A DNA stretch of 64,000 nt from assembly GCA_963720505.1 (NCBI GenBank), contig CAVRFT010000002.1, positions 16,121 through 80,120 of the forward strand, written 5' to 3'. The DNA is from an uncultured Chloroflexia bacterium. GTDB lineage: Bacteria > Chloroflexota > Limnocylindria > QHBO01. Each line of letters opens with the position of its first letter. The stretch's first letter is position 1. The notes below the pieces were generated by a model that ran no database searches, was not told where the DNA came from, and worked only from the letters and a program-made list of their open reading frames with translations. Shown here in pieces: positions 53,905 to 56,528 of this stretch. Position numbers and translations under genes: made by a program.

Positions 53905-54284
53905 TCAGTAGGTCAGAACCGCGATCCCCTGCCGCTCGAAATCCGGCCGGTTGCGCGTGACGACCGTGGCGTCCAGGACCGATGCAATGCCCCCGATGAG
54001 GGCGTCCGCCAGGGCGCGCCGTCCACCGGCCTCGTGACGAAGCCGCCTGGACTCGCCCGCCCAGCGAGCCATGTCGGGCGACGTTGCGACGTAATCGAGC
54101 GCGTCGAGCAGCCTTGCCAATTGCTGTCGCTGTCGTCGTCACCGCGGGAAAGGGTTTCGCAGGTCACGACGTCGCAGGTGAACAGCTCGTGCCCCTCCTC
54201 GAAGAAACGATCAAAGAGCGCATTGGCTGCCGGATCCCCGTTCGCATGGTCGATGAGCAGGGTCGAGTCCAGGAGGTATCGCAC
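53905..54284 (-). CDS. vapC: PIN-domain toxin VapC; frameshift near 54125
   Basis: YLLDSTLLID, CE, ADALIGGIA, VTRNRPDF acidic tetrad. Confidence 0.88.
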
Positions 54285-54286
54285 GG

Positions 54287-54530
54287 TCAGTCGGACTCTT
54301 CGGATCGCATGCGCTCGACCCACTTCGACACCTGGGCGCGGCTCATCCCGTGTTCTGTCTCCGCCAGGATGCCAGCAGTGTCGCGAATGGCCTGCCCCAG
54401 CCGATCGCGCCGGATGCGTTGCGCTACCGCCTCCGCGACGTAACGGCTTCGTCCGCGCGGCCCAGCCATCGCGTCGACCTCATCGAGCAGCTCGGCCGGT
54501 AAGCGTCAGGTTGGTGCGCGCGAGTGCCAT
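54287..54530 (-). CDS. vapB: Ribbon-helix-helix antitoxin (VapB); frameshift near 54500
   Basis: RTNLTL-PAELLDEVDAMAGPRGRSRYVAEAV; directly upstream of vapC. Confidence 0.82.
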
Positions 54531-54544
54531 GCTGGGCTCCATGA

Positions 54545-54576
54545 GTGTGCAATGCTATGCGCATACCCTAGCACAC
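54545..54576. promoter_or_regulatory. Dyad operator in the vapBC promoter
   Basis: GTGTGC (54545) / GCACAC (54571) arms centred exactly on the palindrome TATGCGCATA (54556-54565). Confidence 0.65.
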
Positions 54577-54683
54577 TACCCGTCACCCTAGCTCGGCGAC
54601 GTCTGTGAAGGCCCGCGGCGGAATCACCCTTGCGCGGGAGCCACGATCCGGTGCATAGTCCCCGCGGCACTCACGCCACGTAC

Positions 54684-54836
54684 GACCAAACAGGAGGACC
54701 GCTGTGCAGATTGGCATTGCTGGACCTCCCGGCCGTCCGGAGTAACGCCCCCGCCCTCTGATTGAGGCGACCCAGGCGCTCCTGACTGGTCGGGACAGGA
54801 CCAACCCCGACTCCCCTTGCTCAGGAGCGCTTTTCC
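54684..54836 (+). promoter_or_regulatory. Leader-peptide attenuator controlling the RIO kinase gene
   Basis: Mutually exclusive helices 1:2 (54693-54700/54722-54729), 1:3 (54684-54696/54779-54791) and 3:4 (54776-54785/54821-54830, then TTTT). Segment 4 contains the RIO SD. Confidence 0.75.
54704..54745 (+). CDS. 13-aa leader peptide MQIGIAGPPGRPE
   Basis: AGGAGG at 54692-54697, 6-nt spacer, GTG, TAA at 54743; several A/T-ending codons unusual for this genome. Confidence 0.7.
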   Translation: MQIGIAGPPGRPE

Positions 54837-55607
54837 GTGTCATCAACCGCGCCGATGCGGTCGGACCTCGAATGGCCGGAGCACGAGCCATACGAGGACG
54901 TCACGCTCGGCAACCTCAAATCAGGCAAAGAGGCAGAGATCTTCCTGGTGGAGCGACGCTACGCCAGCGGTCCGCGCCTGCTCGCCCACAAACGCTACCG
55001 CCCGCGCTACCCCACCAAGGGCCAGCTGCGGGAGGAGGGCTTCAGCAACTCCACCTCGTACCGCGGCGACTCGGTGTATCGCGGCGGCTGGGCGTTCCTC
55101 AACGCCCGCGACCAGCGCGCGGTGGCCTCCGGCAACAAGAGCGGCTATGGCCAGGAGCTGGCCGGCCAGCTGTGGCCGGCGCTCGAGTGGGTCATGCTGC
55201 GCCGCGCCTGGGAGGCGGGCGCATCGGTCCCCTACCCCGTCGAGCAGACCGATCACGGGCTGCTGATGGAGTTCATCGGCGACGAATCCATGGCGGCGCC
55301 CAAGCTCGCCCAGGCTCGCCTCGAGCCCGATGCACTGGCATCCGCCTGGGCACAGCTCCACGCCAACCTGCGCGCTCTGACCGAGGCGGGGCTGGTTCAC
55401 GCCGATCTATCGGTCTACAACCTGCTCTGGTGGGAGGGGCGGCTGGTGCTGATCGACCTGCCGCAGGCGGTGGAGTTCACGACCAACGCCGATGCGTGGG
55501 ACCTGCTGCACCGTGACGTGGCCAACGTCGGCGACTGGTTCACGCGCCATGGCGTGCCGGTGGAGGTGGAGGAGGTGTACGCCGATCTGCTGACGCTGGT
55601 CCACTGA
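54837..55607 (+). CDS. RIO1-family atypical kinase/ATPase
   Basis: LKSGKEA loop, LLMEFIG, LVHADLSVYNLL, LIDLPQA. Confidence 0.92.
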   Translation: MSSTAPMRSDLEWPEHEPYEDVTLGNLKSGKEAEIFLVERRYASGPRLLAHKRYRPRYPTKGQLREEGFSNSTSYRGDSVYRGGWAFLNARDQRAVASGNKSGYGQELAGQLWPALEWVMLRRAWEAGASVPYPVEQTDHGLLMEFIGDESMAAPKLAQARLEPDALASAWAQLHANLRALTEAGLVHADLSVYNLLWWEGRLVLIDLPQAVEFTTNADAWDLLHRDVANVGDWFTRHGVPVEVEEVYADLLTLVH

Positions 55608-55643
55608 CTTCCGCGGGACGATGCTCGCGCGCACACTACGGCC

Positions 55644-56528
55644 ATGAGCGGAGCAGAGAACAGGTACAGCACGCGATCGGCGAAGCCGCAGACCAAGAAT
55701 CTCGATGACCCCGACGAGAGGCTGACGTTCCCGAAGGGCGTTGTCACCAACGTTCGGTTGGGCGACCTGGTGGTCGGCCGGATGGTGCAGCAACCAGGCT
55801 GGCGTTGGTCGGAACAGGTGAAGCCCATCGCGAAGACCGAGAGCTGCCAATTCCACCACGTCGGGGTTGGACTGTCCGGCACCGCCATGATCCGCATGGA
55901 CGATGGCACCGAGATGACCATCCGCCCGGGCGACGTGTTCGACATCCCGCCTGGGCATGACCAGTGGGTCGTTGGTGACGAGCCCGCCGTTTCGATCATC
56001 TGGGGCGGTTGGCGCGGGTTCGGCAAGACCCCGGCTGGCGATCGGGTGCTGACCACCATGCTGATGACCGATATCACCGGATCCACCGACCGTGCCGCAG
56101 CGATGGGCGACGCCGCATGGGACCAGTTGCTGGAGCGGCACAACCAGCTGGTCCGCGACGTGATCGAGCAGTACCGCGGGCAGGAGATCGACACCACCGG
56201 CGACGGTTTCCTCATCGTCTTCGATGGCGCCGCTCGGGCGCTGCAGGCGGCCGCGGACATTCGCACTGCCGTCGGAGGGATCGGCCTGGAGATCCATGCC
56301 GGGATCCACACCGGCGAAGTGGAGCTGGTGCCGGGCAACATCCGCGGCCTGGCCGTGCACGAGACCGCCCGCATCATGGCGCTGGCGGGAGCGGGCGAGA
56401 TCCTGGTGTCGAGCACCACGAAGGAGCTCGTCTCGGCGCCCGGCGTCACGTTCGAAGACCGCGGGCGGCACGTGCTCAAGGGCGTGCCCGGCGAGCGGCA
56501 GGTCTACGCGGCCACGGTGGACGGCTGA
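55644..56528 (+). CDS. Cupin domain + Rv1900c-like class III cyclase fusion
   Basis: PGWRWS..CQFHH..PPGHD cupin; LMTDITGST, EIDTTGDGF, GLAVHETARI. Confidence 0.88.
   Translation: MSGAENRYSTRSAKPQTKNLDDPDERLTFPKGVVTNVRLGDLVVGRMVQQPGWRWSEQVKPIAKTESCQFHHVGVGLSGTAMIRMDDGTEMTIRPGDVFDIPPGHDQWVVGDEPAVSIIWGGWRGFGKTPAGDRVLTTMLMTDITGSTDRAAAMGDAAWDQLLERHNQLVRDVIEQYRGQEIDTTGDGFLIVFDGAARALQAAADIRTAVGGIGLEIHAGIHTGEVELVPGNIRGLAVHETARIMALAGAGEILVSSTTKELVSAPGVTFEDRGRHVLKGVPGERQVYAATVDG

Follow-up and report, generated by a model that had tools for sequence, protein, structure and literature searches.

Introduction

What does a short reading frame, set among segments that can pair with one another in more than one way, do directly upstream of a bacterial RIO kinase gene? 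We address this question at a locus of an uncultured Chloroflexia bacterium (contig CAVRFT010000002.1, assembly GCA_963720505.1), within a stretch of 64,000 nucleotides (nt) that we call the window and whose positions are used throughout. Here, a short upstream open reading frame (uORF) precedes the gene for a RIO1-type protein kinase, hereafter RIO. Our best reading of the leader is that of a translation-sensing switch that sequesters the Shine–Dalgarno sequence of RIO (SD2), of the leader-peptide kind that follows the logic of erm, toiL, and trp, with an arrangement and a target that are new. More specifically, we think it probable, if only just, that positions 54630–54836 form an mRNA leader that controls the initiation of RIO translation by three competing helices and that is read via ribosome occupancy of the uORF.

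RIO proteins have a role at the small ribosomal subunit in archaea and eukaryotes. Bacterial RIO kinases are annotated by homology only; our literature search turned up no paper on their function or regulation, and neither that search nor Rfam yielded a described control of this sort for a bacterial RIO kinase, as had been surmised beforehand. An earlier, sequence-only reading of this DNA took the leader for an attenuator in which a ribosome stalled on two proline codons of the uORF covers one segment (segment 2), frees the Shine–Dalgarno sequence of the uORF (SD1) to capture another (segment 3), and so releases SD2, such that RIO would be induced by EF-P shortage, Pro-tRNA starvation, or peptidyl-transferase stress. 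The elements that it listed are all present, namely AGGAGG, the GTG-initiated uORF, the pairings denoted 1:2, 3:4, and 1:3, and the buried SD2. Its overall picture of a conserved, translated-looking leader that masks SD2 stands, but its competing helix and the role it gave to the prolines are not supported, and the sign of regulation is likely the reverse.

A conserved uORF precedes RIO orthologues

RIO orthologues were gathered irrespective of their upstream DNA, from the genomes of relatives, from a set with one genome per species, and from soil metagenomes searched with a protein alignment (A1), and the resulting leaders come from Candidatus Limnocylindria (Chloroflexota) metagenome-assembled genomes (MAGs) and from soil metagenomes. 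Taking unique leaders that had 240 nt or more of upstream DNA, we looked for uORFs of 8–30 codons that are preceded by a Shine–Dalgarno sequence and lie more than 85 nt upstream of the RIO start. Such a uORF is found in 80/80 unique orthologous leaders, compared with 4.4 ± 2.2 in dinucleotide shuffles, and the predicted conservation of the uORF in relatives is thus borne out. In the window, AGGAGG at 54692–54697 precedes the uORF GTG at 54704, and the SD1 core GGAGG is almost invariant in a 42-sequence leader alignment of close relatives (A2). The 44 unique leaders of the close clade (clade A) encode a peptide of the form M-Q-I-x-[IV]-A-V-P-P-[GD]-R-[AS]-E, with or without two more residues.

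We judge the uORF to be read because the identity of its start codon shifts without its position (GTG, ATG, and TTG alternate at a constant distance to CCU CCC), the SD1-to-start spacer differs by 5–9 nt among relatives without affecting the length of the ORF, differences in uORF length amount to whole codons (L127, L143, L144), and indels are in-frame or compensated (L127, L143, L122), with the frameshift of L122 regaining the frame ahead of the same stop. By this comparative signature, the uORF looks translated, as the short upstream ORF of a leader-peptide attenuator would be. By per-position entropy, uORF codons 5–7 vary chiefly at the third position, and codons 8–11 are frozen at each of the three. 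As codon 8, 35/42 close relatives have CCU and none has CCC, CCG, or CCA, despite the G+C-rich genome. Constraint thus appears to act on the peptide in the first half of the uORF and on the RNA in the second.

Two metagenomic leaders are of note for what happened to this region. In L122 (Ga0310890_10071653), the peptide has become MSIAIAVLPTARSA through the loss of 1 nt ahead of CCUCCC and of 2 nt behind GGAG, while the RNA strands and the stop are kept; this leader reads as a natural test in which the RNA outweighs the peptide in codons 8–13. In L101 (contig Ga0315556_1044632), three tandem GTCCGCCTGAC copies duplicate the region of the uORF stop and lengthen the spacer to segment 3, the remaining leader being intact.

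Applied to 401 genomes of the class, a covariance model of the leader (R1), in which the hairpins P1 and P2 described below are not encoded since MAFFT mis-registers them, detects the leader in 36/401 genomes, all in one family. There is one copy per genome, in 35 of the 36 by one count and in all but two, each with a second match, by another. The hits that were fetched all sit directly upstream of a RIO orthologue (30/30), and the leader is therefore dedicated to the RIO gene. Within the same family, one genome (G288) has two full-length matches (C22:330505–330662 and C2:51909–52071), the first of which lies before RIO; this may be a duplicated RIO locus. The distribution of RIO with its leader is patchy in the class as a whole and also in the genus of the window, where it occurs in 1/13 other genomes (G001–G013), many of the MAGs being incomplete. 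A scan of 54000–56000 against Rfam 15 gave no match on either strand at E ≤ 1, and the fold of the whole 201-nt leader is not significantly better than those of shuffles (z = −1.46). The window sequence by itself proves little, and it is conservation that lifts the leader above chance; on comparative grounds, we regard it as a real, conserved RNA element in front of RIO.

Two exclusive helices share segment 3

SD2 sits in the 3′ arm of a helix between segments 3 and 4 (helix 3:4), 9 nt upstream of the RIO GTG (Table 1). The pairing of 54776–54785 with 54821–54830 (10/10) extends on folding to 12 bp (54774–54785 with 54821–54832), so that the helix proposed to conceal SD2 is longer than first described. 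It is paired in 96.7% of the cells of A2, compared with 32–62% when the partner is slid. In place of covariation within the close clade, we used cross-clade swap tests, in which cognate strands of 3:4 across five clades pair at −16.6 kcal/mol versus −12.3 kcal/mol for swapped strands. The distal end of the helix changes among relatives (UG:CA, CG:CG, A:U), and distant clades build it from other sequence, for example ACUCC:GGAGU or UCCGAG:CUCGGA. The sequestration of the regulated gene's SD is thus seen in the length of the helix, in its pairing in A2, and in the advantage of cognate over swapped strands. In minimum free energy (MFE) folds, 3:4 is accompanied by an inner hairpin of 7 bp, of which relatives keep the 5′ arm, the GGTCGGG of segment 3 that is invariant in A2, and vary the 3′ arm and the register.

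The conserved competitor of 3:4 is a helix between segments 2 and 3 (helix 2:3), which has two parts. uORF codons 9–11 (CCCGGCCG, 54728–54735) pair 8/8 with UGGUCGGG (54787–54794), and GGAG(U), comprising codons 12–13 and the first base of the stop (54739–54743), pairs 5/5 with GCUCC (54778–54782). Because GCUCC of segment 3 is also the anti-SD2, helices 2:3 and 3:4 are mutually exclusive, and it is in this pair that the exclusivity envisaged earlier is realized. In A2, 2:3 is paired in 94.3% of cells, compared with 25–54% when slid, with one pair (54:134) occurring as G-U in 22 sequences, A-U in 10, and G-C in 8. RNAalifold picks the core of 2:3 (columns 50–56 with 132–138) unprompted as the consensus. 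When sequences are treated individually with RNAduplex, segment 3 is the best partner of the uORF 3′ half in most of the 78 leaders (−21 to −58 kcal/mol), while the best upstream-RNA partner of segment 3 falls within the uORF or at most 12 nt past its stop in 55/70 leaders, typically at codons 8–16.

Between clades, cognate strands of 2:3 pair at −25.4 kcal/mol versus −21.1 kcal/mol for swapped strands, and relative to shuffled segment 2, z is −2.75, with 76% of leaders under −2. The clades form this helix from differing sequences: CCCGCGGCCGGA:UCCGGUCGCGGG; CCGGCUG-GCCGGAG:CUCCGGU(A)CGGCCGG; and CCCGAU(G)CCUCG:CGAGG-GUCGGG. Both 2:3 and 3:4 thus covary across clades, whereas for 2:4 and 1:4, which served as controls, cognate strands have no advantage.

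The helix to which the release of SD2 had been attributed, 1:3 (54684–54696 with 54779–54791), pairs at 11/13 positions in the window, but it fails as an anti-sequestor in relatives: over 70 leaders, z is −0.12 with just 7% below −2, and cognate strands (−12.3 kcal/mol) do no better than swapped ones (−12.5 kcal/mol). We reject 1:3 as generic SD:anti-SD complementarity, no better than that of shuffled segment 1 or of swapped molecules. The 7/8 pairing of segment 1 (54693–54700) with segment 2 (54722–54729) is present and corresponds to hairpin P1, whose complementarity is conserved with little covariation (cognate −14.0 versus swapped −13.1 kcal/mol). Of the three helices predicted to covary in relatives, then, 3:4 does so, 1:2 is conserved with little covariation, and 1:3 drops out. 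P1 shares just two bases with helix 2:3, and both coexist in folds. Hairpin P2 is enclosed by helix 2:3 in sequential folds; it is found, as read by eye and unscored, in most close-clade leaders with altered arms (GCCUC:GAGGC, CUUC:GAAG, GGUCU:AGACC) and is absent in clades B and C1.

Table 1. Positions of the leader elements and the RIO gene in the window
Feature	Position	Strand	Description and basis
Promoter-like element	54630–54659	+	TTGCGC (54630–54635), 18-nt spacer, CATAGT (54654–54659); interlocus comparison
SD1	54692–54698	+	AGGAGGA; ribosome-binding site of the uORF, also the 5′ strand of P1
Leader uORF	54704–54745	+	MQIGIAGPPGRPE; 13 codons, GTG start, TAA stop at 54743–54745
Hairpin P1		+	SD1 with CCUCC of codons 8–9, 54725–54729 as 3′ partner; MFE fold
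Segment 2	54722–54743	+	uORF codons 7–13; GGACCTCC (54722–54729) is the anti-SD1 strand of P1, CCCGGCCG and GGAGT are the 5′ strand of 2:3
Hairpin P2	54752–54769	+	CGCCCTC / GAGGCG, loop TGATT; between uORF stop and segment 3
Segment 3	54774–54794	+	Shared strand; AGGCGCTCCTGA (54774–54785) is the anti-SD2, followed by TGGTCGGG (54787–54794)
Inner hairpin of OFF state	54788–54812	+	GGTCGGG 54788–54794 with 54806–54812 (7 bp); MFE folds
Segment 4	54821–54832	+	Contains SD2 (AGGAG, 54823–54827) of RIO; pairs with segment 3
RIO1-type protein kinase gene	54837–55607	+	256 aa, GTG start; Pfam, NCBIfam, and PDB matches

The Pro-Pro codons as RNA strands

The sequence-only reading made polyproline the defining sensor of the leader, and this role is not supported by the family as a whole. 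Consecutive proline codons occur in 46/78 leaders (A 36/44, B 9/11, C1 0/6, C2 1/12, D 0/5), which leaves three of the five clades with 1/23, and Pro-Pro-Gly or Pro-Pro-Asp occurs in 34/44 close-clade and 8/11 clade B leaders. Where present, the two codons are always CCU CCC. In the close clade, Pro-Pro is lost via C-to-U changes at codon 8 that keep the pairing with SD1, and synonymous sites are frozen. Judged by this pattern, CCU CCC is fixed at the level of the RNA, as the anti-SD1 and as a strand of 2:3, and reflects an RNA-pairing constraint; a "polyproline motif" can thus arise as a by-product of such a constraint. Save for Pro-Pro in some clades, the uORF peptides contain no repeated regulatory codon and hence no run of codons for a sensed amino acid. 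In this compact variant, one stretch of 20 nt would do triple duty, encoding Pro-Pro-Gly-Arg-x-Glu, providing the anti-SD for the uORF's own ribosome-binding site, and forming the anti-sequestor for RIO.

Folding order and proposed mechanism

The OFF state (P1, P2, and 3:4) is favored at equilibrium by approximately 10 kcal/mol. We modeled the ribosome as a mask with a 29-nt footprint placed at initiation, with the P site at codon 3 or codon 9, or at the stop. In the close clade, the cost of opening SD2 is 11.3 kcal/mol for the naked leader, 10.1 kcal/mol with the ribosome at the start and likewise at codon 3, 11.5 kcal/mol at codon 9, and 13.1 kcal/mol at the stop. An erm-like equilibrium flip is rejected, as masking barely alters this cost in the window clade, and stall-induced opening of SD2 is not seen in silico, the codon-9 mask also covering the anti-sequestor. 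Because the equilibrium masks do not separate the states in the window clade, we turned to folding order. In the window leader, 2:3 is the MFE structure at transcript lengths of 130–162 nt and gives way to 3:4 at 170 nt, when segment 4 is complete. When transcripts are cut before segment 4, the MFE structure contains 8 bp or more of 2:3 in 48/78 leaders.

We propose a mechanism with three helices. P1 would pair the uORF's own SD with the CCUCC of codons 8–9, while 3:4, together with the inner hairpin, would bury SD2 in the thermodynamic ground state (OFF). Helix 2:3 would join uORF codons 9–13 (CCCGGCCG...GGAG) to segment 3 (GCUCC...GGUCGGG) and leave SD2 free (ON). Since segments 2 and 3 are transcribed ahead of segment 4, 2:3 would form first unless a ribosome occupies the 3′ half of the uORF, and the control would thus be kinetic, with the switch sensing ribosome occupancy of uORF codons 8–13 during synthesis of the leader. 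A ribosome that is translating these codons, paused on Pro-Pro-Gly, or terminating there would enforce 3:4 and turn RIO off. If segment 2 is bare as segment 3 emerges, 2:3 would form, SD2 would be exposed for a time, and RIO would be on. Segment 2 would be bare if the uORF is not initiated, if the ribosome has stalled in the first codons, or if the ribosome is already gone.

The sign of regulation, like the dependence of the alternative helix on ribosome position, is one that we infer from footprint geometry. Going by bacterial footprints in general, a ribosome with Pro9 in the P site should span roughly codons 4/5 to 13/14. This footprint would comprise all of segment 2, and the structural consequence is therefore expected to be opposite to that of the sequence-only reading: where a Pro-Pro stall had been thought to release SD2, it would cover the uORF strand (codons 9–13) of the conserved competitor 2:3 and favor sequestration. 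Pro-Pro-Gly/Asp would thus be no inducing signal but a kind of parking brake, keeping the ribosome in place over the anti-sequestor, and RIO most likely stays off while a ribosome pauses at the two prolines. As the genome encodes EF-P (efp), some sensitivity of the leader to EF-P is plausible, with an expected sign opposite to that first proposed.

Several results weigh against this mechanism. Helices 2:3 and 3:4 are too conserved in the close clade for two-sided covariation to be seen, and the OFF state is favored at equilibrium by approximately 10 kcal/mol with or without segment 2 masked. Of the truncated folds, 30/78 do not have 2:3 as the MFE structure. The estimated barrier from ON to OFF is low (approximately 7 kcal/mol in the window, 8.8 kcal/mol on average), and the naked ON state is therefore expected to be short-lived; it may be stabilized by 30S capture, by a protein or ligand, or by tertiary contacts. 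Finally, only 5–8 nt separate the uORF stop from segment 3 in clades B and C1, where a terminating ribosome would be expected to melt 3:4; a ribosome at the stop cuts the opening cost in C1 from 8.8 to 2.8 kcal/mol. In these clades, translation of the uORF may activate RIO, in which case the sign would not be uniform family-wide.

Alternative explanations

The geometry of clades B and C1 is also what would be expected from translational coupling, in which translation of the uORF is required, 3:4 is opened by the terminating ribosome or by bare segment 2 after disruption of P1, and a Pro-Pro pause only delays. The strong SD1, which suggests frequent translation of the uORF, fits such a scheme, and RIO would then track good translation capacity. 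We nonetheless consider coupling unlikely, as the uORF stop of the window clade lies 17–60 nt upstream of segment 3 with P2 in between, a ribosome at the stop raises rather than lowers the opening cost there (13.1 versus 11.3 kcal/mol), and direct melting has no need of 2:3, which is conserved in all clades.

The instability predicted for the naked ON state, which a stabilizer would relieve, and the conservation of segment 2, of segment 3 with its invariant GGUCGGG, and of part of P2 beyond the needs of pairing might instead point to a leader in which the fold of P1, 2:3, and P2 binds a protein or small ligand that stabilizes ON or OFF, the uORF being secondary. The RIO kinase itself, a ribosomal protein, or an assembly factor could play this part. 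With no match to an Rfam family, no candidate factor identified, and a start codon, frame, and third-position pattern that argue for translation of the uORF, this explanation seems quite unlikely, although it is compatible with the ribosome-occupancy mechanism and the two are not mutually exclusive.

Transcription attenuation, with 3:4 and the following UUUU as an intrinsic terminator, 2:3 as the antiterminator, and RNA polymerase making the decision, would explain how a short-lived 2:3 can be relevant, as the decision is co-transcriptional, and the close clade does have a G+C-rich stem followed by a T-rich stretch (a mean of 5.4 T in the 11 nt after GGAG). The TTTT tail had been read in this way. 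However, a scan of 54200–55800 called no terminator, the loop is approximately 35 nt, the T run is interrupted and coincides with the spacer between SD2 and the start codon, and T-richness is weaker in clades B and C2 (3.1–3.4 T). Moreover, SD2 lies inside the stem, so that read-through transcripts would stay masked. The closing structure thus does not look like an intrinsic terminator of the trp/his type, and attenuation is very unlikely as the main mode of control, although in the close clade a measure of termination might still come from the T-rich spacer.

Least probable of all is the release of SD2 by a Pro-Pro stall: for all that 1:3 pairs in the window, that Pro-Pro-Gly/Asp recurs in two clades, that EF-P is encoded, and that stall induction is how erm/cat-type leaders work, 1:3 is not conserved past generic SD:anti-SD complementarity and must beat the 12-bp helix plus the 7-bp inner hairpin, the conserved anti-sequestor strand would lie under a stalled ribosome, masking segment 2 leaves the opening cost of SD2 unlowered (11.5 versus 11.3 kcal/mol), Pro-Pro is missing in 32/78 leaders, and CCU CCC is fixed at synonymous sites.

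The RIO gene and its surroundings

By sequence, the ORF downstream of the leader encodes a true RIO1-type kinase. It matches Pfam RIO1 (3.9e-32) and, under the equivalog cut-off, the NCBIfam PA4780-family RIO1-like model (2.1e-33), while solved Rio1 structures in the PDB match at 3e-19, the alignment to A. fulgidus-type Rio1 taking in the GKEA loop, LVHADLSVYN, and IDLPQAV. The motifs of the RIO domain are present, including the nucleotide-binding loop, the catalytic HxDLSxYN, and the metal-binding IDxxQ, with residues invariant in 18 orthologues, among which the position of the GTG start is also kept. The protein thus shares with the archaeal and eukaryotic Rio1 kinases/ATPases a RIO1 domain with nucleotide loop, catalytic loop, and metal-binding motif, and it differs from them in belonging to a bacterial clade that is related to the PA4780 family and known here by homology.

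Upstream, the promoter-like element in Table 1 emerged only by comparison, as a strict scan for consensus sigma-70 promoters and terminators (54200–55800) called nothing. The pattern TTGnnn-N17/18-CAT[AGC][AG]T recurs in 49/55 orthologous loci with enough upstream DNA and ends 37–60 nt (median 43) upstream of the uORF start. Transcription would be expected to start at approximately 54666.

Two overlapping small ORFs on the minus strand (53913–54469) are divergent from the RIO leader, one of 60 aa (54287–54469) and one of 136 aa (53913–54323). Their layout resembles that of an antitoxin/PIN-toxin pair, and neither has a Pfam match at E ≤ 0.01. Their promoter must share the 54470–54630 gap with that of RIO. 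On the other side, a gene for a cupin–adenylate/guanylate cyclase fusion (55644–56528, plus strand; Pfam Guanylate_cyc, 3.1e-10) begins 37 nt past the RIO stop. This cyclase is not a conserved neighbor of RIO, as tblastn matches it in only 2 of approximately 200 loci, and there is therefore no conserved operon.

Leaders in Actinomycetota and implications

The same layout, as read by eye from the sequences and from single-sequence folds, is found in cultured Microbacterium and in Actinomycetota MAGs. In these leaders, SD1 pairs with uORF codons 7–10, the 5′ arm of the anti-sequestor lies at the uORF end or stop, and the sequestor hides SD2. In Microbacterium sp. SD291 and M. natoriense JCM 12611 (L037 and L041), the uORF MT[TN]VFVAPLADILP ends in Pro-UGA, approximately 110–70 nt before the RIO start. 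A hairpin (UGAGGCCAC...GUGGCCUC) overlaps this stop with its 5′ arm, and its 3′ arm has the RIO SD as an alternative partner (GUGGCCUCC...GGAGCCAC). No leader was seen for the homologues in Kitasatospora, which carry long N-terminal extensions.

It is possible, if doubtful, that a shared and hitherto undescribed class of ribosome-occupancy leaders governs the RIO1-type kinases of soil Chloroflexota and Actinomycetota. In such a class, a proline-dependent slow step (Pro-Pro-Gly/Asp in Limnocylindria, Pro-UGA in Microbacterium) would park the ribosome on the anti-sequestor, and more kinase would be made whenever ribosomes do not load or stop short of the ORF end. If so, bacterial RIO would be a feedback-controlled, EF-P-sensitive responder to shortage or malfunction of the small subunit, which would give it a first physiological context. 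Since cultured Microbacterium share the layout, this idea is testable at the bench.

The leader is dedicated to RIO, kept in at least five diverged clades of one Chloroflexota class, and mirrored in Actinomycetota. By reading ribosome traffic on an ORF of 13–22 codons, it would tie the expression of RIO to the state of translation, a link that agrees with what RIO proteins do at the small subunit in archaea and eukaryotes.

Comparison with known systems

The RIO leader resembles the erm/cat-type leaders (ermC-ermCL, ermA, cat86, cmlA) in having an SD-preceded short uORF, a helix that locks the downstream SD, an exclusive alternative that would be set by the ribosome, and translation initiation as the output. 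The I-A-V near the N-terminus of many of its peptides may be reminiscent of the IAVV/IFVI class of Erm leaders. The two differ in where the anti-sequestor lies. In erm/cat-type leaders, what a stalled ribosome covers is the anti-sequestor's partner, and the gene is turned on, whereas the RIO anti-sequestor lies inside the uORF (codons 9–13), such that ribosome occupancy would turn the gene off. In addition, the RIO leader has no known inducer, its target is a RIO kinase rather than a resistance gene, and the SD of its uORF is paired with the uORF itself (P1).

With the Pro/EF-P leaders (Salmonella mgtP-mgtCBR and mgtL-mgtA, and engineered pyrL), the RIO leader shares consecutive proline codons in a short ORF, on which the speed of the ribosome could set the fold. 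In cells deleted for efp, termination goes up when polyproline is inserted ahead of pyrL (PMC5021804). The Pro-Pro of the RIO leader differs in not being family-wide, and its codons double as pairing strands.

In E. coli, the toiL uORF upstream of topAI senses translation stress, with a structure that occludes the downstream ribosome-binding site and that ribosome position alters (bioRxiv 10.1101/682021). The likeness to the RIO leader lies in all three features, the stress-sensing uORF, the occluded ribosome-binding site, and the ribosome-position-dependent structure. The toiL leader belongs to another sequence family, its output includes Rho termination, and stalling relieves occlusion there, whereas the geometry of the RIO leader predicts relief only if ribosomes miss codons 8–13.

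Relative to trp/his/pyrBI attenuation, the closing helix of the RIO leader hides an SD, with no clear intrinsic terminator and no runs of regulatory codons. The logic that we propose is nonetheless the same in that a ribosome at the end of the leader ORF would mask the 5′ strand of the anti-structure, so that the closing helix forms, and a ribosome that is held upstream or absent would permit the anti-structure, the decision being kinetic and co-transcriptional.

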